Shown one piece after another: positions 12,720 through 45,910 of a DNA stretch of 64,000 nucleotides (position 1 is its first letter; the number at the start of each line of letters is the position of its first letter). The DNA comes from Yuukianura sp. NJ FZ-2021 (lineage: Eukaryota). The stretch lies in the NCBI GenBank assembly GCA_046563655.1, contig CM102285.1:1178001-1242000 (forward strand), read 5' to 3'. A program made the translations under genes and the position numbers. The notes under the pieces are model-generated. The model saw only the letters and a program-made list of their open reading frames with translations. It was not told the origin of the DNA and ran no database searches.

Positions 12720-15700
12720 GATCAATGGCCATATTTATTGATGTGGCGTAAGAAATTTGAATGATGGTGAAACTTGTTACCGCATGTAGCACATTCATAC
12801 CCAGGCAATTTCCCACATTCAAACCTACAAAAGAAAAATAAAAAAAAAGTGCCCCAATATTTTTTGAAACCAAGCAAAAAATATTTAAATTACTTGATGT
12901 GACGATTCAAACTTCGTTTGTGTACATATGCTCGACCACAATTTTTTGGACATCGGAAAATACGACAGCCTTTATAAAAAAAAAAGAGAACTTAATCATA
13001 AAAATTTTAATTTGTGGACAAAAAAATTCCTGGAGAGGCTCACCACCAGGTTTTTATTTGACTAATTTTTTTGTTGCACTTTCGAATTTCGAAATCAAAT
13101 TTTGTAAAACACTATATTGTTGAAACCAATTATAAAAATTAACGACGTGAACATGTATTAGTCAAGTGGCGTTTTAAAGAAGATTTTCGGTGAAACTTGG
13201 ATCCGCATCGAGAACATTCATACCCCGGAGCGTTCCCGCACTCATATCTATGAAAAAACAACTTTTTTTTAAAACAAGTTTTTTTTTAATTCCATTACTA
13301 AAAAATGCAATTACTTCAAGTGGCGGCTCAAACTCCATTTGATTGCGTAACTTCGACCACAATTATTTGGACAACGAAACCCCACACCGCGATTATCTAT
13401 TTCAGTTTGGCCTAAAAAATAATCCAATTTCAGCTCCTCCGGAATTTAGACAAAAATTAAATACTAGAATAAAACAAAAGCATAATAAAACATTTTGTAA
13501 AACAAAAGGCTAGAGAGGCTCACCGCGTGCTAAAGTCATTGGAAAAAACGCAAAAATTAGAAAATCAGGAACACTATTAGAGACAATGTTTCAAGACAAA
13601 CAAATTTCAAAAAAAGGTTTGGTTTCCCGCCATGCAAATTTTTCTTTATTATAATAATATTGACATTATATTATAATGAATAAACTGGACCTATCGCAAA
13701 TGGTACACTACATGCTTTCTCTGTTTAGATGAACGACCACAGTTAGGGGTTGGGCAATAAAATCGATTGTTTTTTCGAATCGGATCCAAGGTCACTATGG
13801 CATGTATAAGTTTAAAATTTTTAGAAAGAAAAAAGACGATGCCTTGAGTCGACAGTTAAATCAACAAGATCTACTTCTACTCATGGCTATACAGACGTTT
13901 GAAAGGTTCACTGATTTCAAAAACTTCAAAAAACTGAAATGGACTGCACTGTTAACACACGTTAACTTAATCAGGTGAACTTAGGTTCTGTTATGTTAAC
14001 AAAAACTTAACAAAAAGTTAGCATTGTCCACCATGGTGGCTGCTTTGGTGGCGACTTAAGTTTCCACTCCAGTGTGTTTTGTAGCCACAGGGACAACGGT
14101 ATCTAGGCTCCTTGTTACACTCATGTCTGCATCAAATCAAAAACCAACAAATAACGTGACACCAATTTAAGTTATAAATTGATCACTTTTTTAAAAATGA
14201 CTTTTTAAAATCTTCAAATTAGCAAAAAGGTTCCTTTGGACAGAAGCAGGTCAATTCGTAAGCAGCTAATTCGTAAGGATTATGTTTATCACGTTTTTTC
14301 TTAATAAAGTTACGCTAATCAGAATAGGTTATGAAGCTTACAAACTGGGCTGGTTACGAATTACGTGGAACCACTTTGAACTAATGAAATATGCAAAAAA
14401 TTCACAACCTACCGAATATGCCACATGGCCTTGTCCTTCCTACTGTACGAACGACCACAGTTTGGATTAGGACAGTAAAAGCGCTTGTTTTTCAAAATCG
14501 GAACTAAGTAAGCTACGCGGTAAAGAAAAAAAGAGGACAGTTTAAACATAATTCAAGATTTCGAGTAAAGAAATAATAAGAAAGGAATATAGAAATAAGG
14601 AATAATAACAAGAATAAAGAATTTGTCTCTGGCCATGCATCACACCTTTGAAAAGTTCACCAATAGTTTAACAATGCAAAAACATCAAAAAAAAACTCGG
14701 AATAGAATTTGACAAATTTGTCGAATTTCGAAATATAAAATATGCAACAGAATTCCAAAATTTGGTATTTGGCGACAGCCAACAGTTGAAAAATTAAATC
14801 GCTGACAGCTTTTCAAATCCATCAGACAAAAACCTTGAATTTTTCTTTCACCAATTAACTATCTCCTGATTTTCAAAATTCAAAAGCAATTGAAAGTTAC
14901 TATTTACATTTCATTGCATAGCCTATTTTGAACATTTTTAAGTTTACTTAAATATAGATCCTGGGAAATGTCCAGTTCTCTTCAAATGTTGTTTAAAATT
15001 TCCTTTTTGATGAAACTTGTAGCCACATTCACAATGAAAGCTCGGATCTTTTTGGCACTCAACTCTAAAACAAATCGAAAACTTAATATTAAAAAAAATA
15101 TTTTAAAGTCGCATTAAATTGTAGCAAAATTTTCAAACGTCAAAATTTCAAGTGGAATTATTCTCACCGCAAATGGTTGGCCAAACCTCCTTTTGTGAAA
15201 TAACTCCGACCACAACCAACGGTAGGACAGCGAAACACATTCTCTAGTTACCCCATAAACTTAATTTAACAACTCTTTAAAAAAAAAGAAATGAGGATTT
15301 CCTTTGTAAAAAACAATTTCAAAACATGGCGACCTTGAGACCTAAGCTTTTTCTTTGTAAATGTAAAATTCGAAATTTTGGATTTCAAGATACAAATTAA
15401 ATTAGTTTTTTAATGCTCTCAAAATCAGTTTTTTAATGCAAGATTTATGGGAATTCAAGCTACAAATTACAATTCATTGCAAATTCGACATTCCCGTGGA
15501 CTTAACCTTAGAAAAATGGTGTATTTTTTGTAGGTGATGAACTAACGAAATTTTCCGATGTGTTTTGTAGCTACAGTGGTCACAACGGAATCGAGGCTCC
15601 TTGTTACACTCATGCCTAAATGAAAAATAAACTTTTTACAATTTTATATTATATTTTATATTATAATATTATATTATAATACTCAGCTGAACCTACCGCA

Positions 15701-18700
15701 AATGGTAGATCACAAGCTTTCTCTCTTTAGACGAACGTCCACATTTCGCAGTTGGGCAATAAAATCGATTGTTTTTCCAAATCGGTTCCAAGATAACTAT
15801 GATATGGATAAGATTTAAAATTTTTAGAGAAAAAACGACGATGTGTTGAGTCAGAATTTAAATCACCGGAATCAATTTCTGTCCATGCCTACTATGTAAA
15901 GGTTTGAAAAGTTCACCAAATTCACAAAAAGTCAAATGAACGCGTAAAAATTATTTATATTTATCCTCCATTTCCAACCAGAAAGTATTTTCTCAGAAGT
16001 CAAAATCAAAAATTCTTAGAACTACAATCACTTCTGGGCCCTTAAGATCAGTTTTTTAATGCAAGATTTGAAATTTTGGAATTCAAGCTACAAATTACAA
16101 TTCATTGCAAATTCGACATTCCCGTGGACTTAACCTTAGAAAAATGGTGTATTTTTTGTAGGTGATGAACTAACGAAACTTTCCAATGTGTTTTGTAGCT
16201 ACAGTGGCTACAACGAAATCGAGGCTCCTTGTTACAAACATGCCTAAATGAAACAAAAAATTCTCAATTTTACAGAAAAGTTCTGAAAACCAAAAGTCAC
16301 TAAACGTCAAAATTTCCATTAAATGAAACTAATGAACGGAACCTACCGCAAATGGTGGACTATCTCCCTTCTCACTTTAGCTGAACGACGACAGTTTGGA
16401 GTTGGACAATAATATCTGTTGTTTTTCAAAATTGGAACCAATGCCACTACATTAAAAATTTGAAAACAAAGAAACATTTCATGAGATTCAAAACTTCAAA
16501 TAAAAAGCAAAAATTCACAACTTTTTTTTTTAAATTCCAAATTAGGCAACAAAATTCGTCTTTCTTTTTAACTACTCGACATCAAAATTTAAAACAACTC
16601 AACTCAATTTACTCGACGTCAACTACTATGTCCACGACGTTTTGAGAAGTTCACAAAAGTCAAAACAATCGAAAAACTCGAAATGAAATTGCAAAATTCT
16701 TGAGAAATTCGCGATCGTTTCAAACAAGAAAAGTTACATAAAGAAAATTCACCCGAAGTCAGTCAACTCACATTCTCGTATAAAATACCAAAATTTTGGA
16801 TTTCAAGTTAAAAACTCCGTTTGCAAGTTGGACATTCACAGTGCACTCACTTAATCTAAAACTAACTGATGACGTCTTCGTAAATGTTGCACAAGATACC
16901 TCCTCCGATGTGTTTTGTAGCTACAGTGGCAACAATAAAAACGAGGCTCCTTGCTACATTCATGTCTAAATAGGTTAAAAAAGGAGAAGCCTGTTCATAA
17001 TTTTGCATAAAAGTTCCGAAAAAAATTCATAAAAACTTCGAAATTTCCAAGTTTACTAAAACGCAAACAATGAACCTACCGCAAATGGTAGATTAAGTGC
17101 TTCTTCTGTGTAAAAGAGCAACGACAGTTTGGAGTTGGACAACAATATCGGTTGTTTGTCAAAATCGGAACCAACGTCACTAAAAATTCAAACATTAAAA
17201 ACAAACTTTTACACAAGATTCAAAATTTTTAGAGAGAAAAAAAACGTTGGATTGAGTTAAAGTCTAAATCAGCGATGTCAATTCACTTCTGTCCATGACT
17301 ATAAAGAGGTTTGAAAAGCTCACCAAATTCAAGAAATTTAAAAAAGATTAAAAAAAAAAAACAAATTAACTTAGAAAAAAATTCTAAAGAATTTCAAACG
17401 GAAAGTTTTTTTTTAAGAAATCAAATAAAGAAATGTTTGAACTAAATTCAGTTCCTGGGTTTCAAAATAAGTTTCTTTAATGTAAAATTCAAAATTTTGA
17501 ATTCTAAACTACAAATTACATTTTAAAGAAAATTCCACATTCCGGTAGACATAGCCTAGGCAAAATGGTGTACTTTTTGTTGGTGTCGCTGAAACAATAT
17601 CTCCCAATGTGTTTTGTAGCTACAGTGACAACAATAGAATCGAGGCTCCTTGTTACATAGATGCCTAAATAAAAAAAAATAAAAAAATTTGCAAACAAGT
17701 TCTTAAAGAGCAAATTGTTCAAAATTTCCAATTTTACAGAAACTAAACCTGGACCTACCGCAAATGATAGGTCGTCTTCCTTCTATCTATCCACGAACGA
17801 GTACAGTTTGGAGTTGGACAATAAAATCGATTGTTTTCCAAAATCGGAACCATGGTTTCTAAATTGAAAATTTAAAAACAAAGAAACTGTTTTACGCGGG
17901 GTTCAAAATTTTAAACTAAAGCCATCAAACTCTGCTCCATGACCTTGTCAAAATTAAAATTTAAGAAACCTGGACCAGCGTCAACTGGATTTTGACAAAT
18001 TCAGAGTTTCTAAGAAGTAAAACAAAAGTTGTAAAACTTTCTAATTTTGAAAATTTAATTGGGTCGGACAATGCAAGAAGAATCGCTTCTAAAAGTCATC
18101 TGAAATCGATAGCCTTTTAACCAAAATAAAAATTTTGAATTCTAAACCACAAATTCATTTTGATTTAAAACCCAATGATCCGAAACTTCTACACACTAAT
18201 TTCTTCATTCAAAAATGCACTGACCACATGAAAAACATAATAAATGCCAAAAATTTACAACTTTTTTAAATTCCAAATTAGACTAAAAAATTCATCTTTT
18301 TTAAATTCGTGACGTGACGCAGTTTGGAGTTGGACAATGAAATCGGTTGTTTTTCAAAATCGGAACCAGCGTCATAGTATGCATAAGATTCAAAATTTTT
18401 AGAGAGAAAAAAAGATGCCTTGAGTCAAAATTTAAATCGGCGAGATCAATTTTTTTTTACCAATGGCAATACCGAGGCTTGAAAAGCTCACCAAATTAAA
18501 AAAAAACGCAATTGAACTTGCAAAAAATTTTTAGAGCAATTCGCGACTTCAAACGAGAATGTATTTTCTCAGAAATCAAAATAAAAAATCTTTGAATTAA
18601 AACACTTCCAGAATTTCAAAATGAGCTTTGTTTCAAAATGTAAAATCCGGATTTTTAGATTCCAAGGTACAAATGAGATTTTATTGCATATTCGCCAATC

Positions 18701-21700
18701 CTGTGAACTTAAGCTAAACAAAATGGTGTCGTTTTTGTAGGTGTTGAACTAACGAAACTCTCCAACGTGTTTTGTAGCTACACTGGCGACAATGGAAACG
18801 AGGCTCCTTGTTACATTCATGTCTAAATAAGTTAAAAAACAGAGCAGCCTGTTCATAATTTTTCATAAAAGTTCTGAAAAAAATTCATAAAAGCTTCGAA
18901 ATTTCCAAGTTTACTAAAACTCAAACAATGAACATACCGCAAATGGTAGCTTATATGCTTCCTTTGTGTGGAAGAACGACGACATTTTGGATTTGGACAA
19001 TGAAATCGGTTGTTTTTCAAAATCGGAACCAACGTCACTAAATTTAAAAAATTAAAATACAAACTTTTACACAAGATTCAAAATTTTTAGAGAAAAACAA
19101 TGATGGATTGAATCAAAATCTAAGTCAACGATGTCAACTCACTTCTGTCCATGGCTACACAGAGGTTTGAGAAGCTCACCAAATTCAAAAAATTTAAAAA
19201 AAAGATTAAAAAAAAAACAAAAAAAAATGAACTTGCAAAAAATTCTACAAGAATTCGCAGTTTCAAACGGGAAAGTTTTTTTTTCTAAGAAATCACATAA
19301 AAAAAAATGTTTGAACTACATTCAGGTCCAGCGTTTCAAAATCAGTTTCTTTAATGTAAAATTCAAAATTTTGAATTCGAAGCTAAACAAATTACATTTC
19401 ATTGCAAATTCGACATTCCCGTGGACATAGCCTAAGCAAAATGGTGTACTTTTTGTTGGTGTTGATGAAACCATGTCTCCCAATGTGTTTTGTAGCTACA
19501 GTGACAACAATAGAATCGAGGCTCCTTGTTACATTGATGCCTAAAAAAAAGAAAACTTTTCAAAAATTTGTAAACAAGTTCTTAAAGGGCAAATTGTTCA
19601 AAATTTCCAATTTTACAGAAACTAAAGCTTCACCTACCGCAAATGATAGACTAGTTTCCGTCTCTCTTTATACGAACGACTGCAGTTTGGAGTTGGACAA
19701 TAAAATCGACTGTTTTTCAAATTCGGAACCATGGTTTCTAAATTAAAAATTTAAAAACAAAGAAACTGTTTTACGCGGTACTCAAAATGTTAAACTAAGA
19801 AAGCAATTTAACTTTATTCCACGACCCATTTCAAAACTTAGTTATGGTAAGATAAAAATGAAAAAGCCTGGACCAGCTTGAACTGGATTTTGACAAATTC
19901 GCAGTTTCAAGAAGTAAAAGAAAACTATCTAATTTTGAAAATTTAGTTGAGTCGGACAATCCTTCAAGCAGAACCGCTTCTAAAAGTCATCCAAAATCGA
20001 CAGCCTTTTAACCAAAATAAACATTTTAAATTCTGAACCACAAATTCATTTTGATTTCAAACACAATGATCCGAAACTTCCACAAACTAATTTCTTCATT
20101 CAAAAAAGCACTGACCAGGACCACATGAAACCCATAATAAAGAAATACCAAAAATTTACAACTTTTTTAAACTCCAGATTAGACTAAGAAATTCCTCCTT
20201 TTTAAATTCGTGGCGTCAAAATGTAAAACAACTCAACTCAATTGAGTAATTCGTAGCGTTTCAAACAAGAAAAGTTCAACAAAAGATTATTTTATTTACA
20301 ACCACTTCTAGGGTATCAAAATTCACTTTTCTTCTACAAATTTCGAAATTAATTTCAAACTATACATTCCGGTTTTATTACAAATTGAACATTTAAGTCA
20401 GCCTCACTTAACCTAGAACGGACTCATGAACACTTCGATGGTGTCGAGCAAGATCGCTCTTACGATGAGTTTTGTAGCTACAGTGGCAACAGCGGAATCG
20501 AGGCTCCCTGTTACATTCGTGACTAAATAAGTAAAAAAAAAAGAACAAATTGATAATTTTGCAGAAAGGTTCTGACAAAAAATTCATAAAAACGTGGAAA
20601 TATCCAACCAAGTTGACTAAAACTCAAATAATGAACCTACCGCAAATGGTAGATTACATGCCTCCTATGTGTGAAAGAACGACGACAGTTTGGAGTTGGA
20701 CAACAAAATTGTTCGTTTTTCCAAATAGGAACCAAAGTTGCTAATGCAAAATTTAAGAAAAAAAACTGCTTCCAACGTTACGATATTCAAAATTTTAAAA
20801 TAAGAAAGCAATATCCTGTTCATGGCTTTGACCTTTGAAAAGTCCACTGTAAATTTGAAAATTCAAAAAACTTCGATAATCTTCAACTAAATTTTGAGAA
20901 ATTCCGTCTTCAGATAAGACGTGAAAAGTTTTTAAACTCAAAATTTAGTTGAAGGAAAATAGCTTTAAGTACAGCCGCTTCCAAAATTGCAAAATTCTTC
21001 TGAAATCGAAATTCTCGCTGAAATCCAAAATCCAAAATTTTGAATACTAAACAACAAACTCGCTTTATTTTAAACACATTGATCCGACAGTTCCAAGCTC
21101 ACTAATTTCTACGATTGAAAAAACAATACTGACTACTATCGAAATTCTACACTACAAAACTCGTCTTTTTTGAAATTCGTGATGTAGTGAAAGTTTTAAC
21201 CAAATTCACCATGCTGGGTGTATCGATGGCGATCGAAATGATATTTCCAATGTGTTTTGTAACCACAGTGACAACGGTGGCACGGGACCTTGTTACACTG
21301 ATACCTACATCAAAAGTCATAGCAAAAGTATTCTATCAAATTACTGTTCAAAATTTTAGAAAAAATAAAATTCAATTTTAGTTCAATTTTTACTCCAACC
21401 ATATAAACATACCGCACATGGTTGTAAAGACTCTTTTTCGCTAGATAAGATCGACTGCACTTTGGATTTGGACAATGAAATCGACCGTCTAAAAATTTCA
21501 AACAAATCTTAAGATATTTTTAGTTTTCAAAGTCTAACTGCAAAATGCAAAATTCGAAACTTGCAACTTTCTGAAAAAATCAATCATTTATGTCCATGGC
21601 TTCCTTTCAAACGTTCACCAAATTCAAAGATTGAAAAAACTTCAACAAGTAGGTAACAAGTTTAGAGAGTGTTAGAAATGTGTATAACATAATTCTAAAA

Positions 21701-22335
21701 TTTGTCATTTGCTTTAAAATTTAATACTGGGTTTGAATTTTCCAGACTACCATAAAACTTACAAAGTTAACCTTGGTGTTTAATGGAGGCCAGGCGCCAA
21801 TTTCCAGAGTATCAAAATTCACCCGAAATCGCTTGTCTTGTACAAAATTCGAAATGGATTACAAACAACACATTCCGTTTTTGGACATTCACAGTCACGC
21901 TCACTTAACCTAGAACGGATTGATGACGATTTCGTTGGTGTTGAAAAAGATCCCTTCTCCGATGTGTTTTGTAGCTGCAGTGGCAACAACGGAAACGAGG
22001 CTCCCTGTTACATTCATGTCTAAATAGGTTAAGAAAAGAGCAGCCTGTTCATAACTTTGCATAAAAGTTGTGAAAAAAATTCATACAAACTTCGAAATTT
22101 CCAAGTTTACTAAAACTCAAATAATGAACCTACCGCAAATGGTAGATTATATGCCTCTTATGTGTAGAAGAACGACGACAGTTGGGAGTTGGACAATAAA
22201 ATCGTTCTTTTCCCAAACAGGAACCAAAGTGGCTAATCGAAAATTAAAAAAAAAACTTGCTTCAAACGATATTCAAAATTTAAACTAAGAAAACAATATC
22301 CTGTTCATGGCTTTGACCTTTGAAGGGTTCACTTA
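12720..22335 (-). CDS. Distal block of two-exon C2HC+C2H2 ZF variable cassettes (~13 complete pairs plus 2 broken)
   Basis: Each unit: phase-1 acceptor, exon A (RFxCPxPxCxRSY...HLR), phase-2 intron, exon B (xECNKEPRFxCxxCxYKTH...H...H*). Approximate spans: 12720-12970, 13139-13410, 14018-14510, 14945-15243, 15470-15790, 16090-16450, 16850-17180, 17516-17860, 18660-19040, 19390-19738, 20408-20740, 21180-21490, 21905-22232. Broken: 13690-13800, 18320-18380. Confidence 0.85.
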
Positions 22336-22537
22336 TAAAAAATAAAAATTTTTTAAAACTTTAAACTTTCTTCAAGTAACTTTTTAGAAATTCGATTTGT
22401 CTAGAGCGACGGCATTTTTCCCTGGATCGTTTTCTGTTTTTCTTGGTATGTTGTATATATACCATTTGTGGTATATATTCGTTCATCAATCATATTTAAT
22501 TGTACTCAAAGATTTTTAAAAACAAACGAGAAAATTA

Positions 22538-22810
22538 TTAACTAGATGCGACATTAGGACCATTTTAAACAAAATTTTTGAAGCAAATGTTTTGTGACGT
22601 TTCTCCTGACAACTTACTCAATTTCATAAAAGTTAAGCCTGGTTCACACAAGATTTTATTTTATAGCAGATTATAAGTCCTCAAAAATTGGAATTCCTCG
22701 TGAGAACCGTGCTTAAACTTGAGGTGAAAGCGGTTTTTTACCTCTTTTAACCTCTTTTAATTTGCTTCAAAAATTTTGTTGAAAAACTGCCTAATGTCCA
22801 CTCTAGTTAA
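22538..22810. mobile_element. Small MITE-like element with ~50-bp imperfect terminal inverted repeats
   Basis: taactagatgcgacattagg...aaaatttttgaagcaaat at left is the imperfect reverse complement of atttgcttcaaaaattttg...cctaatgtccactctagtta at right. Confidence 0.55.
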
Positions 22811-34000: not shown

Positions 34001-37000
34001 TTAACACCAAAATATTTTTCAGAAAAGTGATTTGTGCCAATGGCCTCCAGGTTTGAGAAGTTCATCACTTCAAACAAAAAAAAACAGGAAAATTTGTTGC
34101 CGAAATACCAAAATTTATTAGAAATTTACTTTTTTTTAGTTCATGGCTAACTGTAACCTGCGTTTGAAAATTCCACTGAATATTATTTTAACTTTAACCT
34201 TAGGACAAAAAGTTGGATACACAAAAGTTAGTCTAAACTTGCTAACGTATCCTAATTGTCACCATGACAGCTGTATTCGTGGCGCTTCAAATTCTTTTCC
34301 CAGTGGGATTTGTAATCACAGTAGTCACACTTGTGGCGAGGTTCCTTGTTACATTCATACCTAACAAAAAACAAAACCCAACACTAGTACAACAACTTTT
34401 TACAACTTGACCTAATATAAAACTTTTTTTAAATTTAATAAAATCTTTCCCATAAAATCAAAATTGTTATTTTTTTATCCAATAATAGAAAATAGTAATG
34501 AACATACCGAATATGCCACAAAGCATGCTTTCTGTGCATGTACGAACGACCACAACTTGGATTTGGACAATAAAACCGATCGCTTTTATAGATCGGAACC
34601 AAGACCACTACAAAGACAAATTTAGAAAACACAAACACCGTGTTAGACGAAATTCACAATTTCAAACAAACAATTCAACTTCTTTCTGCTCATGACCTTT
34701 GAAAAGTTCACTAAATTAAAACTTTTAGAACAAAACTTAGAACAAGCTACTAAAACCTTGTACTAACGTTGTGCTTAAGGATCTTAGAACAAAACCACCA
34801 AAATTATTCTCAATTTTCCATCCTTAAATCCTAATGAGGTTGTGACTGTTTGTTAACCTATCAAAAATTAAGAAAGTCCACCATGGTGGGTGATTTTGTG
34901 GCGAGTTAAGTTTCGGATCCAGTGTGTTTTGTAGCCACAGTGACAACGGAATCTGGGCTCCTTGTTACATTCATGTCTACATCAAATCAAAAAAATTCTT
35001 TTCCAAAAATCTTTTAAACAAGATGAAATTTTTGGATTCTATTCCAACTACTTATATGAGCAGCCGTGGACCTACCGAACATGATTGATAAGGCTACATT
35101 TCCGAAGATACGAACGACCACAATTCGGATTTGGACAACAAAATCGGCTACCTAAAAATTTAGAATGGCCACACTAAACTAGTTCAAACTTAAAATTTAT
35201 ATAAGCATTACGTTAAAAAAAAAAACCAAACACCAGACTTCGAATGAATCCAAAAATTTACTTCGTGCCAAACGAGGACCATTGAGAAGTTCACTCAACT
35301 CTAAATTTTAAAATATGAAGTTCAAAATTTGGCAACCACAAATTCCCTTTTTGAAATTTATATTGTATTTATTATACATATTTTTATATCCACCATGGTC
35401 GAGGAAAAGAAAGTTCTAATTCAACAAGAGTTTCCACAATACCAAAATTTATCCAAAAACACTTTTCGGGTCTAAAATCCGAACTTTTGGATTCTAAAAC
35501 TCCAAATTCGGATTTACTTCACAGTATCACCTCAACTTAACCCAAAACTTGTTCCATGAACTTGCTTTTGATGAAGTGCTAAACACGCCTTCCGCTGAGT
35601 TTTGTAGTCACAGTAACAACAACAGTAGCACGGAGGCTCCTTGTTGCACTCATTCCTGCATCAAAAAACGAAACATTTCGTAATTCTGTCCAAAGTTACA
35701 AAAAAAAAGTTCAAAATTTCAAATACTACTCCAACTCAAAAAATCTACATACCGCAAATGGTAGGCAAGATCCTCTTTCAAATCAAATGAACGACCGCAG
35801 CTCGAAGTTACACAACAAAATCGAATGCCTAAAAATTTCACAAACAAAATTTGGAACACAAAATTTGTGACCATGGACCTTGACGTTTGAGAAGTTCACT
35901 TCAACTCACAAATTCACCAATTTTAAACCAAAAAAAAAGTTTAAACCAAAACGAAATGCCAAAATTTTTAGTACAATGAAATCTATTGGGAATTCCTAGG
36001 CAAAATTCGTATTTCGAAATTCGCGTCTTCGTAATGTTGACGCTGACGCTGGTGACGAACTAAATGTGATTTCCAATGTGTTTTGTAGCCACAAGTTCAG
36101 TGACAAGTTCAGTGTTCAGTGACAAGAGAGACGAGGCTCCTTGTTACATTCATACCTACATCATTCAAAATGTTGTTCAAAATTTTGAGTTTTCTAAGTC
36201 AAAATTCAAAATTTGTTTGTGGAAGGTCTGGACTTTACCGAAGATGACGAACTAGACTGCCCTTTACAATAAAAGCCCTACGGCAGTTGGGAACTGGACA
36301 ATGAAATCGCCGATCTAAAAAGCCAAAACGAGAGGAAGCAACTACCAAAATTCAAAATAAAATTTGGAACATAGAAATATGAAAAACAATTTCCAATGCC
36401 TGTCCATGACCATTGAGAAGTTCAGAAAGTTAAACACAACAGCAAAGATGAAAGGACAAGACGCAAACTTTAAACCAGTTTTTTTTTATGAGTAAACATT
36501 TAAGAACTCTAGTTTTAACAAAAATCTTTAACTTTGTACTCACGTTCACAATTTTAAAAAAGCCGAAAAGTCCTTCCCTGACTAACACAAACATGAATGA
36601 TAATTTTTAATTTTTATATTCCAAGGTTTTAAAATTAAATATAATTTTTTTTAAACTTCTCTAACTTGTAAATAAAACTTTTTGAAATTGGTGTTCATGT
36701 AGACTAACATTTAATAAAAAAAAAGTTTAAGTTCGCCCACCGTGGCGTCTGATTTGGTGGCTATTTAAATGTGATTTCCAATGCGTCTTGTACCCACAGT
36801 GACAAAAGTGACGAGGCTCCTTGTTACATTCATGGCTGCAACGAAATCTAATTTTAGAAGAATTTCCAAAAAGTTACAAATGATGGAAGAAAAAAACCTA
36901 CCGAAGATGAGAGAGAAGACTGCGTCTATGATTATAACAACGGCCACAGTTTGGAGTTGGACAATAAAACTGCTTCTTTCCTACAACCGAAAACGATGTA

Positions 37001-37725
37001 ACACACAATTTAAAAAAAAAACAGCTAAGACGACTTTTTTTTTCCTTTATGACCTTGAAAAGTTCACAAATTAAAAAAAACCAACAACCTTATTTAAGAA
37101 AAAATTTTTGAAATTTTCATTTTCTATAGAGAAATTTTCGTACTTCATGAATTTCAAATTTCACATTTTTCAAATTTCCTGGTGGCATCACGTGTCTTCA
37201 ACGCGTGTCAAAGTTCACAATCTTGAAGTAGAAAAAAAACGCAACCTACCGCATATGACGAATAAGACTCTTGCGCCAACCATAAGAACGGCCACAGTTT
37301 GGAGTCGGACAGACAAACCGATTGCCTTTTTACAAATTCAAAAAAAACTGAAATAATAAAAGTATAAACCGAAACTTCAAAAGCCATTCGAAAAATTTTC
37401 AAAAAACTTCCATTTCCATAATTTTGTAACAAAGTTTATTACATTCTGTCCATGGCATATGACCTTTGAGAAGTTCACAAATTGAAAAAAATAACAGAAA
37501 TCTCAAGATAGTGGCTTCGGAAAACGCAGAACCAACGTTAAAACGTTGTTTAAAAGTGGACTACGTTTTTTAGTCTCATTCCTTTCTTTAGAAAACCGCT
37601 GCAACAAAATGCAACGACGCCCAATGAAAGCACCTTGTCGATGACGTGTTAAATGGTTCATAGTGTAACTCTTATTGTAGCCACATCCACAAAAAGAACG
37701 AGGCTCCTTGTTACATTGATAGCTA
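25010..37725 (-). CDS. Central block of two-exon ZF variable cassettes (~19 pairs plus an orphan A and an orphan B exon)
   Basis: Same architecture. Approximate spans: 25010-25340, 25690-26084, 26420-26700, 26968-27278 (broken), 27630-27980, 28256-28540, 28750-29090, 29560-29880, 30165-30444, 30844-31139, 31637-31918, 32316-32611, 32790-33083, 33735-33984, 34240-34607, 34868-35151, 35537-35828, 36000-36314 (stop), 36727-36980. Orphan A 37249-37325; orphan B 37560-37722. Confidence 0.85.
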
Positions 37726-37840
37726 AGATCAAACACAACTTAATCAAAAACTTACATCAGATTTACATCAAAAACAAGTTACTCATTTTCGTAATTCAAA
37801 AACAGCTTTAAAAAAAATTCATTTTTTCACAACGTTTCGA

Positions 37841-40800
37841 CTAATCAGAATTTAGACATTGCAGAATGTGCAGCCCTCCTCAAGTGCTTTTCAAAATTTC
37901 CTTTGTGATAAGACGTGTAGTCACAATTGTTGCAACGAAAAGTCGGTGTTTTTCGACACTGAAATCTAAAACAAAGGTTTAAATGCTTAAATATTGTAAA
38001 TGTATTTTATGTATTGTAAAATACAAACACACATGTCATAACTGCGAAAACTTCGAAAAAAAAATCATCTCAATGTTCAACATTATTATCAAAAAACCTA
38101 AATAATTATAACAAAAAAATATACCGGAGGTGTGACCTAAGATATTTCATCCGCTTAAATGATCGGCCACAATTTGCATTTGGACAACAAAATTGGCTGC
38201 CTAAAACTCAGAAAAGAACGAAAATATTTAAAAAAAAAAAAGAGTTCACAACATAAATCAAAATCAAAAAATTTAAACACCCATGGCGTTTGAAAAGTTC
38301 ACTAACTTCCACAAACTTCAAAAAAGTCAAATTCCAACTTAAAACTCAAAATCCAAACTCCGAAGCGCTATAACATTTCTGAAAAATTTTCAAAAAATAA
38401 AATAAGAATGTGTTCTAATTTTCGAAATTCAAAACCCCTAAAAACAACGTTTCTTTTTTCATAACTTAAAGTATTTTGTTATGTTAGAAAGCGGAGTATG
38501 TCCAGTCTTCTTCACATGATGTCTCAAATTTCCTTTGTAATGATTCTTGTAGCCACACTCGCAATGAAAACTCGGTTCTTTCTGACACTCATATCTAAAA
38601 CCAGCCCAAAACTTAAGAAAATCCACTTACTTTTCATCAAATACAAACTTCGAAATTTCGATTTCAATCATCCTCACCGAAAATGGTTACTCAAACCGCT
38701 TTTTGTCCAGTAACTCCGATTACAGCCAACAGTCGGACACTGGAATCGAATCCCTGTTACCCCAAAAACATGTTTGTTTTTTCGTTTTTGAAAGAAAATG
38801 TTTCCAATTGAATTGTGAATGAAAACAATTTCCAAAACCTGGCGACCTTGAGAAAAACACGCAACGGAAAGTGGAAAGCTAATTTTAAAAAATTGAGACG
38901 ATGCCACTACAATTCTGAAAACTAAAATATTGAAATTTAGAACAGCCACGTCAATTTTTCTGTTGACTTTGGAAATAAATTTTTACCAAATTTTAATTCT
39001 CGCCGAATTCCAGCAAAGACTAACCACTCCAAAAACATTCAGGTAATGCAAAACAGTGTTTAAAAGCCAGCTGATGAAAAACCTTGCATTTTTCCTTGAT
39101 CGATTAACCATTTCCCGACTTTCAAAAGTCAAAAGCAATGAAACTAGCTATTTTTATTTCTTTACATATAGCTTATACTTTGTACATTTTTAAGTTTACT
39201 TAAATTTAGATCGTGAGAAATGTCCAGCTCTCTTCACATGTTGTTTGAAATTTCCTTTTTGATGAGTCTTGTAGCCACATTTGCAATGAAAGCTCGGTTC
39301 TTTTTGACACTCATATCTAAATCGAAAACTTAATATTTAAAAAATTTATTTTTATTCTACGCTAAATTATGTAAAAAATTTTAAACGTCAAGATTTTGGT
39401 TGGAATTATTCTCACCGCAAATGGTTGGCCAAACCTCCTTTTGTGAAATAACTCCGAGTACAACCAACAGTAGGGCAGTGGAACACATTCTCTAGTTACC
39501 ACAAAAACGTAATTTAAAAAACATGACTTCTTAACAAAATTTAAAACATGGCGACCGTGAGGAGAACATGCAATCACTAGTTGACTTCAGCATGAAAAAC
39601 TGGAAAATATAAAACTACTTTTACCAAGAATCTAAACTAAAATTAGGAAATTTCGAACTACTATCACATAGTCCATAACCGTAGAGCACTTCACCAAATT
39701 CATTTAGTGATTGGATCAAAATCTAACAATTTTTGGGTTTTGGGACTCGGAAAATGTCCACTTCTCCTCAAGTGTCTCTTAAAATTTCCTTTTTGATGGA
39801 ACTTATAACCACATCGGCAAATAAAACGTGGTTCTTTCTGGCACTCGTTTCTAAAACAAAACAAAACTTCACTTTCAAATAAAATCAGAGTGTTCAATAA
39901 AAAAATTTCGAATACAAAAATTAATGTTCCAAAATCGCAAACTTCAAAATTTCGAAAAACCCTGCCTCACCGAACATGGTTCCCCAAACCGCTTGATGTC
40001 CAGTACTTCCGGTTGCAATTTATATTAGGACAGTGGAACCGTTTCACTGTAGTTTTACGTCAAAAAATAATAATACGAGAAAGTATTTTTTTAAATACCA
40101 TGCAGTTTTTAAAAATGGCGACATTGAGGGGAACAATTTTGGACAAACAGCAAAATTTATTTCAAAAGTTACTTTTCAACTTTTTTTTTTTTCAATTGAT
40201 TTAGCACTACAGAGAAGAGGTCAACTGTGCCGAATGCCCTTTACTTTTCAAGTGCCTGATAAAATTTCCTTTTAGATGAAACTTGCAGCCACAGTTGCAG
40301 AAAAACGTCGGCTCTTTCTGACACTCAAATCTAAAACAGTAAAACCTCAATTGTCCAAACTTTTGAAACAAAAATCAGAAAACTTCAAAATTTTGATTTC
40401 AATTATCCTCACCGAATATGACTCCTCAAACCTTGTACTGTCCAGTAACGACGCTTACAACCAGCATTAGGACAAGGGAGTCGTGTACCTACGTGTATTT
40501 CACGAAAAAAAAGTTGAAAAACAGATATTTTAAAAAAAAAACATAAAAAAAACAATTTTTAATTTAAGAAAAGCGATTTTAGAGCAAGACGACTTTGAGG
40601 ATCGAGTAATGTCAATGTGTAGCAAAAATCTAATAAATCTAACTGGTGTTTTTGAAATTCGTGACGTTTCAACTTAAAATATAATAAATAATTTTATTTC
40701 ATATAAAAGTCAACGACTTTCACTATGGTAGTGTTTCATGTGGCGATTCAAATTGGACTTTCTGTGGCATTTATAACCACAGTGGCAATGGTAACCAGGC

Positions 40801-43800
40801 TGCTTGTTGCATTCATACCTAACGCATTCAAAAAAAAATTCCAAGTTCCTTCAAAAAAATTTGTAAAACAAAACCAAATTTTCACTTTGATCAAATTTGA
40901 TCCAGTAAAAAAAAATTGACGTACCGAATATGTTCAGTGAGATTCCCTTTTCGACGATAAGAACGTCCGCAAACTCGACAATAAAACCGATTGATGTTAA
41001 CATTCACTACATAAGTGCCAAAAATATTTCACAAACCCAAAATTTGCAGCAAATAACTTATTTTGATTTTTTTACTTTAACACATAGACCTTGAGAAGTT
41101 CACTAACATACCGAATTCAACAGAAACTGCAGCCTGCATATCAGTTCTCAAAATACAAATATAAAAAAAACTTTCTTAATGTATCTAAATCTATTTATAA
41201 TTTAGAAATTATGTCAAACACTCATTTTCCACGACGTTTCCCTTTTTTCATGAAGTATTGGTCAGAACTTGGAGAATGTCCGAGAGTTTTCAAGTGTTTT
41301 TTTAAACTTCCTTTTTGATAACTCTTGTAGCCACATTGGCAATGAAAACTCGGATCTTTTTGACACTCGTATCTAAAAGAGATAAACAAATATTTCATTT
41401 TGCACAATTTCCGAAAACAACAAAAATAAGAATAAATTTACAGTAAAAAATCAGAAAATTTCATTTCGATTTGAATTATGCTCACCGAAAATGGTTAATC
41501 AGCCCTGATTTTGACATGTACCAACGATAGCAACCAACATTAGGACAATGGAATCGATTCATCCCTATTTACGCCAACAAATTAAGTTCACAACTCAAGT
41601 TCATTACAAACTTTGAATTTGTAAAAATTAAATTTAAAAGGTTTAGAAAAAGGTTTTTTTTTTTAACATGGCGACTTTGAGCGGAGTTAGGTCAAAACCA
41701 AGAGCGATTTTATTACTTGAAATGAACTTAAAAAAAACTCTGAACAACGATTTCGCATTTTCAAAAAAGTGGAGAATGCCCACTAGTTTTCACGTGTTTG
41801 GTTAAGAATCTTTTTTGATAAAACTTGAAACCACATTCGCAATGAAAAGTAAGATCTTTCTGGCAGTGGCAGTAATACCTAAAAATAAATTTAGTTTCCC
41901 AGAATTTAGTACATAAAAAAGCTCAACTTCAAAATTTAGATGCGAATTATATCCTCACCACAAATGACGCCACAAACTTCCTACTGTGAAGTACCGACGA
42001 TTACAGCCAAAATTCGGACAATGATACTGAATCTCTATTTGCGAAAAAAAAAACCAAGAAGTTACATACGAGTATGTTTCTTTTTTTTTTAAATGAACAA
42101 AAAAAAATGTAAAAGTCGATTTTCACCGATGGCGAGTTTGAGGAAAGTAGAAAAAAAATTAAAAACTTAAAAAATACATAAAACTTTTTTAAAAAAAATT
42201 TGACGACTATTGAATTTCTTTTGCAATGTTCCTCTAGACCCGATATCTAAAATTAACCATTTCACACAATTGAAACGGAAACTAACATCTTTGTTCATAA
42301 TCTACCGCCTTTTTTTCGGGAAACGATACTAGACAGTGGAGAGTGCCCCATCCTCTGCAAATGTGATATTAAATTTCTTTTTCGGATAGTCTTGTAACCA
42401 CATTTGCAATGAAACTTCGGATCCTTTTGACACTCATTTCTAAAAACAAACGCAAACCATAAAGTTTTTAAAACATTTTTCGGAAAAAGACTAAAAATCT
42501 AAACCTTTTCATGTTTTGAAAACGAACCTACCGAAGATGGTCCGCGAGATGGCCTTTGTGACGATAAGAACGACCGCAATTTGGAGTTAGACAATAAAAC
42601 CGATTGTTTTTAAAAATCACTAAAACAACCAACAACAATCTAAAAAAATCCGAAACAAATCTTCGACCTTTGAGAAGTTCACTACAATTTAAAATTTTAA
42701 ATTTAATTCATCAACAATTTCCAAAACATAGATTCCAAAGGGAGACTTTTTTTTTTTAATAAAACGTTCAACAAAATTTCACACCAGGATTTCAAAAATT
42801 TGAGATGGCAAAAGCCTATTTTCCAGTATGTTTTCGTTTTGTCTTAAAAACTGACTGAGTAGGTGGAGAATGCCCAGTTTTTTGCAAATGCCTTTTTAAG
42901 TGTTCTTTTTGATAAAACCTGGAGCCACAAGCACAATGAAAACTGGGGTCTTTCTGGCAGTACAATCTAGAAGAAATTCATTTAGATTTTACTTCAAGAA
43001 ATTTAAAAAAAATCAAGTTCCAAATTTCGATTCCTCACCGCAAATGATTCCCCAAACCTCCTTTTGTCAAGTACCAACGGCTACAGCCAACATTGTGACA
43101 ACGGAATCGTGTCTCTGTTTGCCCCAAGCAAAAAAGTCAATAACGTCAAAAAAAATCAAAAAACGATGAAAGCCTAAGTTCTTTGAAAATGCGTTTAAAA
43201 AATTGTTAATTTTCAACAATGGCGACTTTGAGGAGAGTAATCTTGACAAATCAATAATTTACAAAAAATTTCATTCAAGTAAAAAATCGAAAATCTAAAC
43301 AAAATTGAAAACTTAAAACTTAAACAGCTTTGGCCTTTGCCAACTGAATAAAAAAGCAAACCTTTAAAAATCTAGATTCAAAGAAACTTCTTCAAATATT
43401 TAAGGAGTACATTTCTAGACCCGAATTTTACAATTCAAAATTTCAAAATTTTACACAATTCAAAACCGTTTTAAACGCACATTATGATTTCATACACTAC
43501 GACCTCTTTTTGAAAAGGCCACTAGACAGTGGGGAATGCCCTCTTCTCAGCAAATGTGATTTTAAATTTCCCTTGCGATGACTCTTGTAGCCACATTTGC
43601 AATGAAACCTCGGAGCTTTTTGACATTCATCTCTGTAAAATGCAAAACTCCAAATTTCAAAAACATTTTTTTCAGAAAATGAACTCAAAAACTAAAACTG
43701 TTCAAAATTTCAAAAACAACCTACCGAAGATGGTTCGAGAGATGATTTTTGCGACCATAAGAACGACCACAGTTTGGAGTGGGGCAATAAAACCGCTTCG

Positions 43801-44455
43801 TTTTAAAAATCCCTAAAATACCAACAAGAATCTCACAAAACCAAAATTTTGAAACATCTTTGACGCTTGAGAAGTTCACTACATTTCAAATTCAAAAAAA
43901 GTTAAACGACAATTTTCCAGATTCTAGAGAAACTTTTTAAAACATTAAAGGAACTTTCTCCCTCACAGTGCCTTTTTCTAGACCCCAACTTGCTAAAAAC
44001 ATATTCTCGGTTTTAATCCAAAATTTTGAAAAATTGACAAAATTCAAATTTTAAGTTGTTTTTTTTTACCGCCTTTTTGAACAAGTTACGTTAGATAGGG
44101 GAGAGTGGCCACTCCTGTTCAAATGTGCTTTTAAATTTCCTTTTCGATGACTCTTGAAACCACATTGGCAATAAAACTTCGGATCTTTTTGACAATTATC
44201 TCTAAAAACGAAATGAATATTTCAGAAAGATGAACTAGATTTTTTAAAAATAATTTTGAACTCTTTATAATTTTTGACTATTCTCACCGAATATGGTTCC
44301 TCAAACCTCCTCGTGTCCGGTAACGCCGTTTACAACCAAAATTTGGACAACGATACCGACATTCTAAACCACCAAAAAAAAATCCTTTCGCATCGATTTT
44401 TCTTTTTTCGTTGTACAAAAAAAATCGAGGCAAAAAAATGACGACTTTGAGTGGA
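37841..44455 (-). CDS. Proximal block of two-exon ZF variable cassettes (~12 pairs, mostly ECQK.P.F.C.CGYK...KGN...H....GH type)
   Basis: Approximate spans: 37841-38200, 38464-38753, 39200-39490, 39700-40047, 40200-40487, 40690-41008, 41222-41563, 41760-42033, 42302-42620, 42844-43112, 43497-43812, 44066-44362. Checked example: exons 43812-43725 and 43632-43497 give GIFKTKRFYCPTPNCGRSYGRKNHLSNHLR|DECQKAPRFHCKCGYKSHRKGNLKSHLLRRGH...*. Confidence 0.85.
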
Positions 44456-45159
44456 AACACAAATCAGAAAAGTTAAACAAATTTTTCTTCAGGCACAGAA
44501 ATATCCAACTTTTACGAATTCTACAAAATTTCTTCCGATTCAGAACTTGGTCTTTATTTAAAAAAAAACTATTTAAAAGTTACTAAAAATTATATTCAGC
44601 ACATAAGCACAAGTGTAAAGCTTTCTATTACCGGGATTAATCAAATTCTGTTCTCGCACCAAAAACTGTAATTTCAGAACCGTCGGCTCAAGAAAAAATG
44701 TTCACTGTATCTGTATAACCCATTCCCTGCTTCCGGCTCTCCAGAATTCGAAACCACGTTTGCTTCCAGTATTTCTTCTAAAACAGAAATCTTAGTTTAA
44801 AGAAAATTCACCACAGACGACAATGAGAGAGATCTTCAGAAAAATGAAAGGTAAAATAAAAAAAAGAACGGCCGAAATATGGCAAAAGTAAAAATTAATT
44901 CAAAACGATTTTGAAAAAAAAAACTGAAGAAAATTTGTCAACTATAACGTTGAAAATTGCAAAAATTCATAAAAATTAAACAAGAAATCCACACACACAA
45001 ACACATACAAAACGACAGATATTGCTTTAGTAAATCAAGGTTAGTAGCTTCCAAAATAATAAAAATCAACTGAAAAAATATGACTTGATTGTCCAAAACT
45101 GACTCTGGTTTCTAATCTAAGCAAAATCAAACCCCGTAACCTAACCATGACCTAACACA

Positions 45160-45458
45160 TTAACTATTTCCGTCAATTGACGAAGCACCCAAACTAGCAG
45201 TCGTGTCGCACAATACCTCAAACAATCCGTGTTTCAGAGACTCAAAACCGAGATTATCTACATCTTGGTGGATTTGAACTTCCGGAACTTTGGCGTGTAC
45301 CCGATTCATATGATTAGTGAGATGTGTATTGCGTTTTGCCTTAAACGGACACAGAGTACAACTGAATCTAGGTGGAATTGCTGGACAATCATACAGTAAA
45401 TGCATTTTGCGACTCTTCTGCGTCACAAATTTACGACAAGCACGACACATAATTCCAC
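45160..45458 (-). CDS. Single-exon ZF variable cassette (C2HC + C2H2)
   Basis: TTTGATTCAG|GT phase-1 acceptor; GGIMCRACRKFVTQKSRKMHLLYDCPAIPPRFSCTLCPFKAKRNTHLTNHMNRVH..., the lola-type finger pair. Confidence 0.8.
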
Positions 45459-45710
45459 CTGAATCAAACCACAAAAAATCATGAGCCACCGATTACGCCA
45501 GAAACTACTCTCAATTCCAAATTCCAAAACTTTCAACTTCAAGTCAACACCAGACGGCCCTGATTGGCACACCACAACGTTAACGTTAGTACGTTTACGC
45601 ACAAACGACAACTTCACAACTCAAAACTGATGTTTCACAGAACCACCGAAATTTTACTCACAAAAACCGAAATTTTTGAGTATGGTAAAAAAGTAAACAG
45701 TCTTCGGATC

Positions 45711-45910
45711 CTACATGTGATCTTTCTTTTTCATGTGAGCCAATAAGTGATGTTTCTTTTTCGCCACAAAAGTACACCTTAAGGGACATCGCAGATCAGC
45801 CAATTTGGACTGAAACTCACAGTCATTTGCTGCGTGACGAAGATGATCCAATAACCCTTTGTCAGGGTAAGTATTTCCACAACCGTGACACTTCCATGTG
45901 TTAACGCAAC
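45711..45910 (-). CDS. Single-exon ZF variable cassette
   Basis: Phase-1 acceptor TTGATTAAG|GT; GCVNTWKCHGCGNTYPDKGLLDHLRHAANDC...LRCPLRCTFVAKKKHHLLAHMKKKDHM*. Confidence 0.65.

Follow-up and report, generated by a model that had tools for sequence, protein, structure and literature searches.

How one gene could supply dozens of DNA-binding specificities, and by what means one of many alternative 3'-terminal exons would be chosen for each transcript, is the question raised by a lola-like BTB zinc-finger locus in the genome assembly of Yuukianura sp. NJ FZ-2021 (GenBank GCA_046563655.1). The window, i.e. the whole stretch of DNA that was analyzed, comprises 64,000 nucleotides (nt) of contig CM102285.1 (positions 1,178,001 to 1,242,000) and is AT-rich eukaryotic DNA; all coordinates given below are positions within it. 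Based on exon structure, reading phase, finger conservation and RNA complementarity, the locus is probably a lola-like BTB zinc-finger gene in which a constant hub exon is joined to one of about 45 cassettes under the guidance of docking/selector RNA pairing. In the proposed mechanism, the phase-1 donor of the hub would splice to a single member of a set of about 45 alternative 3'-terminal cassettes, and each member would supply a C2HC+C2H2 finger pair with its own recognition residues, followed by a stop codon. A docking element located 31 nt into the hub intron could pair with a selector about 80 nt upstream of nearly every acceptor, and sharing of the central docking bases would allow only one selector to pair at a time. 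The pairing may bring the chosen acceptor beside the hub donor in the manner of Dscam exon 6, and the joining could occur in cis or in trans. The more specific proposal is of an RNA address code, made up of one ultraconserved docking element and about 45 selectors competing for it, by which each transcript, in cis or by trans-splicing, would receive a single DNA-binding domain; it appears slightly better than an even bet.

The constant exons and the cassette array

Four constant exons, all with canonical splice sites, were located on the minus strand between 48089 and 46746, and their joint product would be a 359-amino-acid BTB part ending in phase 1. Two of the three constant introns (exon 1–2 and exon 3–4) are bridged by RNA contigs with GT..AG ends. 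The N-terminal BTB motif reads IRLRWTSHQ, compared with FCLRWNNHQ in insect lola, and the domain is of the TTK type. The spliced BTB domain shows 58–63% identity to lola, 47–56% to bab, broad-like and abrupt proteins, and 40% to a Tigriopus broad-complex-like protein. The named best hits for exon 2 are mostly lola, together with some bab and broad-like proteins, in a shared-word protein search that was dominated by low-complexity words and matched the BTB part alone. An exhaustive HMMER search returned 5232 BTB relatives, about eight of which, all unannotated records, match across the whole linker; these closest whole-linker relatives come from metagenomes or un-annotated assemblies, and the nearest Atlas clusters are arthropod BTB proteins. 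The host of the locus is an arthropod outside the well-annotated insects. Annotated lola isoforms of Drosophila, Diaphorina and an odonate carry the same C2HC+C2H2 dyad with an xEC...C linker, so that the lola-type architecture named in the original prediction is borne out by the Pfam BTB matches, the BTB identity and the shared dyad. The gene is filed as lola-like, and orthology with lola, judged from best hits, is not proven. Doubtful, if worth keeping in view, is the alternative of a non-lola TTK-type BTB gene with independently expanded lola-like finger cassettes. Its BTB identity to lola is just moderately above that to bab, broad-like and abrupt proteins, bric-a-brac 1 is the second-best named hit in the exhaustive search, and a second BTB paralogue is recorded in a relative, with a partial copy also lying upstream in the window. 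However, lola accounts for the majority of the named best hits, the dyad with its xEC..P.F.C linker agrees with annotated lola isoforms, and lola is distinguished by just such a hub exon leading to many alternative terminal cassettes.

Downstream of the hub exon, every zinc-finger motif of the region flagged in the original prediction lies on the minus strand. The exons and phases of the array, which spans 45910–12722, were read directly from the DNA: two single-exon units are followed by 45 two-exon-type C2HC+C2H2 units with a GT donor on exon A (45 exon-A units between 44363 and 12894 by script count). Exon A follows the pattern C-x2-4-C-x12-H, then one or two residues, and its GT donor leaves the first two bases of a codon at the exon end. 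Exon B is found in 43 of the 45 after 65–286 nt, where it completes finger 1 (xEC), adds finger 2 and ends in a stop codon. The two-exon units are 59–101 codons long in total and are separated by spacers of 160–860 nt, with a cassette spacing of about 700 bases. In all of them the intron interrupts finger 1 immediately ahead of xEC, after H-x plus two bases of the following codon. Among the YAG sites upstream of the first Cys, the one richest in pyrimidines falls in phase 1 in 42 of 46 units and in phase 2 in two, and two units have none; when every YAG site with an open frame is counted, phase 1 has 47 and the other two phases have 7 each. The single-exon units s1 and s2 possess phase-1 acceptors too. 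Since the hub donor is in phase 1 and the best cassette acceptors are in phase 1, the cassettes are compatible with the hub, to which they would be spliced.

The recognition residues at helix positions -1, 2, 3 and 6 form 42 distinct combinations among the 43 two-exon array units, and the sole pair sharing them, u11 and u43, consists of recent dispersed copies with 90% nucleotide identity. Given 43 two-exon and two single-exon intact cassettes and these 42 combinations, about 45 DNA-binding forms on one BTB scaffold is a fair reading of the sequence. Most of the original prediction thus stood: a one-strand array of lola-type two-finger cassettes, about 44 two-exon plus two single-exon units, phase-1 starts matching the constant exon, no start exon of their own (the units begin at phase-1 acceptors, not start codons), an intron between the His and final Cys of finger 1, and widely varying recognition residues, with the four quoted helices located in u3, u46, u12 and u19. 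Two of its statements had to be trimmed. The units end in a stop in 43 of the 45 two-exon cases, the exceptions being u14 and u16, and the figure of about 50 specificities on one scaffold comes down to about 45, some cassettes being decayed.

The 44 complete two-exon units (43 in the array and the upstream unit u1) all carry the C-terminal C2HC+C2H2 finger pair, and none of the 44 departs from the ligand pattern C, C, H, C, C, C, H at any of its seven columns. Framework positions R44, K64, P66 and K77 of the 44-unit alignment are nearly invariant, and variation is greatest at the positions that precede each first His. The ratio of nonsynonymous to synonymous substitution rates (dN/dS; Nei–Gojobori) was estimated for the 37 pairs of units with a nucleotide identity of 72% or more, and in each of the 37 it lies between 0.19 and 0.84. 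When 14 independent pairs are pooled, the framework has a dN/dS of 0.29 and helix positions -1, 1, 2, 3, 5 and 6 one of 0.59; the bootstrap ranges for the eight closest pairs are 0.24–0.53 (framework) and 0.27–1.01 (helices). The intact cassettes are thus under purifying selection, with recognition helices that change faster; positive selection is not proven, and gene conversion among the tandem copies could distort these values. At least six units or fragments are decayed. Exon B is missing from u14 and frameshifted in u16, an extra exon A at 13756 has its donor GT changed to AT and no exon B, and three further fragments are relics. Unit u34, where a 1-nt deletion relative to its paralogue u36 breaks the frame from the canonical acceptor, is possibly defective.

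Finger 2 of 24 of the 44 units (e.g. 39316–39196) has a C-x-C knuckle, with one residue between the cysteines, instead of C-x2-C. This knuckle is retained in diverged cassettes and in the two-exon units of a related locus (L002, described below), and none was present in the lola proteins examined. An AlphaFold2 model built from the 24 C-x-C exon-B sequences is predicted to adopt a beta-beta-alpha fold (hairpin plus helix), with a mean predicted local distance difference test (pLDDT) score of 77 and 87–89 in the core. Almost all of the PDB matches listed for this model are classical C2H2 fingers (root-mean-square deviation 1.0–1.5 A over 24–28 columns), and the matches are non-significant, with E-values of at least 1.5.

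Complementarity between the hub intron and the cassettes

When the hub region of the window was compared with that of L002, the best-conserved stretch was found not to be exonic: it starts at the end of the hub exon and extends into the intron, with 86.7% identity over 98 nt, and includes an uninterrupted identical block. Within it lies the 38-nt docking element. It is conserved at 36 of 38 positions in the related loci L002, L003 and L008 and at 32 of 38 in L004, where the corresponding exon-2 proteins are 49%, 49%, 39% and 49% identical to that of the window, respectively. The reading frame through the element differs in L008 and runs into a stop, and in L004 a stop codon precedes the element in the read-through frame; coding therefore does not explain its conservation. 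A search of Rfam returned no family matching the hub intron.

The reverse complement of the docking element recurs upstream of the cassettes. The motif GTGAACTTCTCAA was matched 36 times with at most two mismatches, compared with 3.3 expected and a largest value of 8 in 100 shuffles. Of these matches, 34 fall within 12.1–43.9 kb on the gene strand; the other two are the complement of the docking element itself and a site at 5977. A second motif (type 2), CTCAAAGTCGCCATG, was matched 11 times with at most three mismatches against 1.2 expected, ten times on the gene strand: before the ECQK-type units u2, u4, u6, u7, u9–u12 and u43, and at 46262. The two selector types cover overlapping halves of the docking element and both include the complement of its central CCTTGAG; since all selectors need these same central bases, the pairings would be mutually exclusive. 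The selector end is a median of 81 nt from the acceptor. Selector motif positions are kept at a frequency of 0.9–1.0, and the flanks fall to 0.3–0.7. Within the 13-nt core, departures from complementarity are mostly C-to-T or A-to-G, which preserve a G-U pair, in a count that is itself biased by the choice of sites for their likeness to the motif.

The strength of this complementarity was estimated with RNAduplex, the docking element being hybridized to the 250 nt upstream of each of 51 acceptors and to 40 dinucleotide shuffles of each stretch. The mean free energy (dG) was -30.2 for the sense stretches, compared with -18.8 for the shuffles and -17.3 for the antisense stretches. Values of -27 or below were reached by 40 of the 51 sense stretches and by none of the 51 antisense stretches, and in 40 of the 51 cases none of the 40 shuffles attained the observed dG. 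A sliding scan of the window gave 70 sense peaks (dG of -24 or below) versus 6 antisense peaks. The single cassette outside the array, u1, has no selector (dG -17.6, z score 0.6).

Both pairing partners are kept in related loci, as can likewise be read directly from their sequences. A metagenome scan with the exon-2 alignment recovered 58 loci, among which L002 covers 20.7 kb of a contig 49.6 kb long, L003 being nearly the same in sequence. BTB exon 1 of L002 is nearly identical to that of the window, its exon 2 is 49% identical, and at least 16 finger cassettes, mostly of a single-exon YDCPxxPPKFxC type, follow on the same strand in the 10 kb downstream. Its units at 14400–14735 and 14773–15030 best match s1 (41%) and s2 (52%), in the same order as in the window, and are followed by two two-exon units with the same intron position and the C-x-C knuckle. 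In the sliding scan, the docking element of L002 gives 22 sense versus 5 antisense peaks, and many of these directly precede the cassettes of L002 itself, which differ from those of the window; that of L004 gives 8 versus 2. Large arrays are thus a trait of the clade, and different cassette types expanded in the two species. Separately, a lola-type two-exon cassette was noticed at 187–331 of L002, on the minus strand of that locus, about 9.5 kb upstream of the BTB exon and on the opposite strand, and a second exon-2/BTB paralogue (P0035) of the relative apparently lies on the contig that carries P0032. An exon-B profile scan of metagenomes matched five stretches, none of which was confirmed, and a shared-word homologue search with the s2 protein found no match.

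Alternative explanations and known systems

Several observations weigh against the proposed gene model and pairing mechanism. No read or contig contains a hub-to-cassette joint, in a single metatranscriptome (X1, share 0.09) with a small share of the stretch; its RNA contigs in region 28201–48200 gave no informative cover over the cassettes and joints in the constant introns alone, and the few short pieces at 40.2–41.3 kb have loose ends that match nothing in the window. Poly(A) hexamers show no enrichment: 31 of 43 spacers contain AATAAA or ATTAAA, and the totals (60 sense versus 68 antisense; shuffle mean 41.7, maximum 60) are non-discriminating. Across 11 paralogue pairs, exons are scarcely more alike than introns (identity of 0.77 for exon A, 0.76 for the intron, 0.83 for exon B and 0.69–0.70 for the flanks), too small a difference for an argument from constraint. 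Eleven of the 51 acceptors are above dG -27 in their 250-nt upstream stretch; no selector was found at u22, u23, u37, s3 or, in the 250 nt scored, s1, and those at u2, u4, u6, u9, u28 and u39 are only weak. The selectors were copied along with the duplicated units and hence represent fewer than 40 independent events. The docking sequence is invariant within the species, so there is no true compensatory covariation to score. Published BLAST and cofold searches are reported to have found no such complementarity in Drosophila lola or mod(mdg4), and experiments argue against pairing at Drosophila mod(mdg4) (PMC4387717, PMC13490949). Finally, only best hits back the assignment to lola, and BTB domains of the bab and broad-like kinds are not much more distant.

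Rather unlikely, among the explanations that accept the array, is that the cassettes are transcribed from their own promoters and trans-spliced to the constant part, the docking–selector pairing then occurring between molecules. Both lola and mod(mdg4) of Drosophila are documented to undergo trans-splicing (PMC4387717, PMC11426971), RNA pairing is reported to aid sDscam trans-splicing in a mite (PMC9258826), and with spacers as short as those of the array, a cis transcript would otherwise need to read through up to 45 terminal exons. On the other hand, no spacer promoters turned up, though no promoter scan was made, and the cassettes are all on one strand and ordered as a cis transcript would lead one to expect. 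The original prediction had regarded cassettes transcribed from their own promoters as independent genes as a refutation of the array; own promoters would not cleanly refute that reading, because the variable exons of Drosophila mod(mdg4) are reported to have their own promoters and yet to be trans-spliced (PMC13490949).

It is improbable that the gene model is right and the complementarity has no pairing function. The upstream motif would then be a conserved part of the duplicated unit, e.g. a protein-binding splicing enhancer, and the hub-intron element would bind a protein or represent an inverted spacer remnant. The abundance of the motif does follow from tandem duplication, in which it was copied with the cassettes; the invariant docking sequence gives pairing no support from covariation; and mod(mdg4) joining in Drosophila is reportedly driven by protein-binding hub-intron motifs rather than by pairing (PMC13490949). 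However, an inverted remnant would not remain identical at 36 of 38 positions where the proteins are 39–49% identical, and the difference in frequency between motif and flanks, the two distinct selector types on overlapping halves of one element, the skew of substitutions toward G-U-compatible changes, and the retention of both partners in L002 before unrelated cassette types all argue for a pairing function. The weakest alternative, an array of independent small zinc-finger genes or dead pseudogenes separate from the BTB gene, could draw on the lack of junction RNA in the X1 contigs and on several plainly decayed units, but is highly improbable given that units of just 59–101 codons open at phase-1 acceptors rather than start codons, keep their ligands in 44/44 units with dN/dS below 1 in 37/37 pairs, and occur in the same layout after the BTB exons of a relative.

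As a lola-like gene with a proposed pairing-guided choice of cassettes, the locus can be set beside published systems. Drosophila lola has 20 isoforms, 17 of them with fingers, and its BTB domain is reported to form hexamers (PMC11426971). Alternates of lola number 58 in Apis and more than 180 in Nasonia, where they branch from one hub exon and have one or two 3' exons, at a spacing of about 1400 bases and with some joined by short introns (PMC5000498). Because these larger arrays are already published, array size alone is not new, and a comparison with Drosophila alone overstates its novelty; the docking/selector complementarity is the addition for a lola-type gene. According to the Nasonia OGS2 paper, non-hymenopteran insects have no comparable lola expansion (PMC5000498); the window demonstrates large lola-like arrays outside Hymenoptera. 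The gene lola is held in one source to exist only in insects (PMC5026256), and orthologues are reported in basal arthropod clades in another (PMC11426971). Like insect lola, the window gene has a TTK-type BTB domain on common 5' exons and one hub exon followed by many alternative 3'-terminal units of one or two exons, with a C2HC+C2H2 pair per unit. In contrast, its BTB domain and linker diverge strongly from the pterygote consensus (58–63% identity), its cassette spacing is about half that reported for the Apis and Nasonia arrays (about 700 versus 1400 bases; PMC5000498), and 24 of its 44 second fingers have one residue between the cysteines. The docking/selector complementarity itself distinguishes the window from Drosophila lola and mod(mdg4) as these are described in PMC4387717 and PMC13490949. 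The Drosophila TSA core is a pseudo-5' splice site that binds U1 small nuclear RNA, whereas the docking element of the window, judged by eye, does not stand out as a strong 5' splice site and instead shows complementarity to the introns on the acceptor side.

A closer parallel is provided by Dscam1 exon 6 and the 3' variable regions of PGRP-LC, CG42235 and Pip, which likewise possess one docking site beside a constant exon and a selector upstream of each variable unit, competing for the same docking bases; in the three 3' regions the competing pairings were reportedly validated by compensatory mutations (PMC6191721). Unlike those systems, the window has terminal cassettes of a transcription factor as its units, with a pairing predicted from sequence, and its selectors are of two types covering two halves of the docking site; its units number about 45, compared with 3, 5–7 and 10 in the published 3' cases (PMC6191721). 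A full-text literature search, with most subscription journals outside its reach, found no description of a docking/selector system for lola. Loci of the lola type obtain dozens of transcription factors from one gene, and the strand-specific complementarity between hub intron and cassettes, conserved across species, provides a concrete hypothesis testable by mutation. If true, a Dscam-style diversity mechanism would have been applied to a transcription factor, and it would explain for this lineage how a lola/mod(mdg4)-type hub intron finds its 3' partners.

Features of the locus and its surroundings

Features of the BTB gene, its cassette array and adjoining exons. Positions are those of the window; cassette spans include the upstream pairing stretch where present; A and B denote exons A and B; dG is the RNAduplex value for the docking element against the 250 nt upstream of the acceptor.
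Feature	Position	Strand	Details
Block upstream of BTB exons	50572..51484	(-)	copies of constant exons 3 and 4 plus cassette u1
Constant exon 1	47919..48089	(-)	ATG and first BTB half; Pfam BTB 2.6e-12; ends CAG|gtactt
Constant exon 2	47114..47830	(-)	second BTB half and linker; Pfam BTB 2.7e-08; relatives match along entire exon
Constant exon 3	46956..47025	(-)	splice sites; joint to exon 4 in 2 RNA contigs
Constant exon 4 (hub exon)	46746..46865	(-)	phase-1 donor GAAG|gtaagc at 46746
Docking element	46678..46715	(-)	38 nt, starts 31 nt after hub donor; single copy
Possible selector for s1	46262..46276	(-)	type-2 motif, 3 mismatches; outside the scored 250 nt
s1, single-exon two-finger cassette, stop	45711..45910	(-)	open reading frame; phase-1 acceptor; L002 14400-14735, 41%
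s2, single-exon two-finger cassette (45458-45160) and pairing stretch	45160..45576	(-)	acceptor ttcag|GT; L002 14773-15030, 52%; dG -37.4
u2	44066..44461	(-)	A 44363-44288, B 44201-44066; type-2 selector; dG -22.0
u3	43497..43886	(-)	A 43812-43725, B 43632-43497; dG -34.7
u4	42816..43237	(-)	A 43114-43039, B 42966-42816; type-2 selector; dG -22.9
u5	42295..42686	(-)	A 42619-42532, B 42439-42295; dG -30.9
u6	41761..42149	(-)	A 42034-41959, B 41878-41761; type-2 selector; dG -21.7
u7	41222..41701	(-)	A 41564-41486, B 41372-41222; dG -30.1
u8	40710..41110	(-)	A 41006-40925, B 40818-40710; dG -33.2
u9	40207..40604	(-)	A 40488-40413, B 40330-40207; type-2 selector; dG -19.3
u10	39700..40136	(-)	A 40046-39971, B 39850-39700; dG -28.4
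u11	39196..39569	(-)	A 39491-39416, B 39316-39196; dG -28.2
u12	38459..38852	(-)	A probably 38753-38678 (nearer acceptor), B 38594-38459; type-2 selector 38852-38838
u13	37845..38313	(-)	A 38200-38125, B 37965-37845; dG -33.7
Relic, orphan exon-B-like open reading frame lacking second His	37506..37739	(-)	
u14, exon A alone (decayed)	37250..37479	(-)	selector dG -39.2
u15	36727..37068	(-)	A 36980-36902, B 36835-36727; dG -28.7
u16 (decayed)	36050..36433	(-)	A 36314-36239, B frameshifted; dG -30.8
u17	35532..35910	(-)	A 35828-35753, B 35655-35532; dG -31.9
u18	34868..35302	(-)	A 35151-35076, B 34976-34868; dG -36.0
u19	34252..34712	(-)	A 34607-34508, B 34360-34252; dG -28.4
u20	33741..34069	(-)	A 33984-33909, B 33843-33741; dG -37.0
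u21	32788..33197	(-)	A 33083-33008, B 32908-32788; dG -36.7
u22, selector not found	32312..32610	(-)	A 32610-32535, B 32420-32312; dG -17.4, z 0.4
u23, selector not found	31637..31918	(-)	A 31918-31843, B 31748-31637; dG -15.8
Relic, exon-B tail	31397..31561	(-)	
u24	30844..31264	(-)	A 31139-31064, B 30949-30844; dG -31.2
u25	30165..30584	(-)	A 30444-30369, B 30273-30165; dG -33.3
u26	29583..30010	(-)	A 29880-29805, B 29703-29583; dG -30.2
u27	28784..29198	(-)	A 29089-28993, B 28892-28784; dG -33.2
u28	28256..28656	(-)	A 28539-28464, B 28364-28256; dG -24.5
u29	27627..28068	(-)	A 27974-27875, B 27744-27627; dG -34.8
u30, finger 1 one residue shorter (H-x3-C)	26975..27396	(-)	A 27277-27205, B 27092-26975; dG -29.2
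u31	26423..26815	(-)	A 26699-26624, B 26528-26423; dG -35.6
u32	25748..26206	(-)	A 26081-25982, B 25880-25748; dG -27.1
u33	25014..25517	(-)	A 25334-25235, B 25128-25014; dG -38.1
Candidate terminal exon without finger (24076-23691, 127 codons)	23691..24683	(-)	phase-1 acceptor ttttcag|CA; no Pfam family
s3, open reading frame with single C2H2 finger and acidic tail	23016..23294	(-)	no phase-1 acceptor, no selector; dG -19.4
u34, possibly defective	21905..22333	(-)	A 22206-22134, B 22019-21905; dG -31.3
u35	21196..21625	(-)	A 21488-21413, B 21304-21196; dG -39.0
u36	20408..20848	(-)	A 20740-20641, B 20522-20408; dG -32.7
u37, selector not found	19432..19737	(-)	A 19737-19638, B 19540-19432; dG -17.5
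u38	18714..19186	(-)	A 19037-18938, B 18822-18714; dG -37.6
Relic, truncated exon A with selector motif	18304..18491	(-)	
u39	17556..17984	(-)	A 17858-17759, B 17664-17556; dG -22.8
u40	16851..17330	(-)	A 17179-17080, B 16965-16851; dG -31.1
u41	16102..16663	(-)	A 16446-16347, B 16243-16102; dG -35.5
u42	15474..15923	(-)	A 15796-15697, B 15615-15474; dG -29.6
u43, dispersed recent copy of u11	14944..15349	(-)	A 15243-15168, B 15064-14944; dG -32.0
u44	14018..14669	(-)	A 14512-14413, B 14126-14018; dG -35.4
Relic, exon A with donor GT to AT, no exon B	13694..13912	(-)	selector retained, dG -31.9
u45	13139..13529	(-)	A 13411-13315, B 13247-13139; dG -31.2
u46, last lola-type cassette	12722..13047	(-)	A 12969-12894, B 12824-12722; dG -34.1
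F1, BED-like finger exon (12539-12372) and selector	12372..12632	(-)	Pfam zf-BED 0.013, below cut-off; dG -31.8
F2, BED-like finger exon (12130-11891) and selector	11891..12166	(-)	Pfam zf-BED 0.0033, below cut-off; dG -36.5

Beyond the lola-type cassettes, the array may extend to about 10–12 kb with another cassette type, as suggested by the BED-like exons F1 and F2. A phase-1 acceptor is present at 11967 for F2 and was not found for F1; both would need further exons, since both donors are in phase 0. Exons similar to F1 and F2 follow the hub exon and docking site of L004. Two related open reading frames (ORFs) come after F1 and F2 on the minus strand (11546–11094 and 10396–10097), both ending in ..DA(L/I)IG|gt and neither belonging to a Pfam family; Pfam did not support their assignment as BEN domains. 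Within the array, the fingerless candidate exon at 24076–23691 is preceded by two selector-like motifs (24401–24413 and 24671–24683).

The block upstream of the BTB exons contains a copy of exon 3 (about 51484–51415, 78% identity), a copy of exon 4 (about 51322–51203) and the intact two-exon cassette u1 (A 51050–50975, B 50692–50572). The exon-4 copy is 120 nt long, ends in phase 1 and encodes a basic KRKRKRDRNKKR stretch. Possibly the block represents the 3' terminus of a tandem paralogue, with BTB exons situated outside the window.

At the low-coordinate end of the window, a run of 100 N (2656–2755), an assembly gap, lies inside a plus-strand ORF, and the ORF at 3107–3955 beside it has no Pfam match. 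Two tandem intron-poor ORFs of 386 and 365 amino acids occupy the minus strand at 5284–6444 and 7634–8731, each preceded by a small related ORF (6423–6623 and 8998–9216, respectively). The 386-residue ORF matches Pfam Terpene_syn_C_2 (1.1e-08), which is unusual for an animal, and a word-based homologue search with this terpene-synthase-like ORF found no match. Upstream of the BTB gene, at about 52300–62000, a unit of about 3.15 kb occurs in tandem as three near-identical copies. Every copy contains a 280-amino-acid plus-strand ORF (53367, 56514 and 59658) with weak coiled-coil Pfam matches alone; these units are probably a transposable element or a recent tandem duplication.

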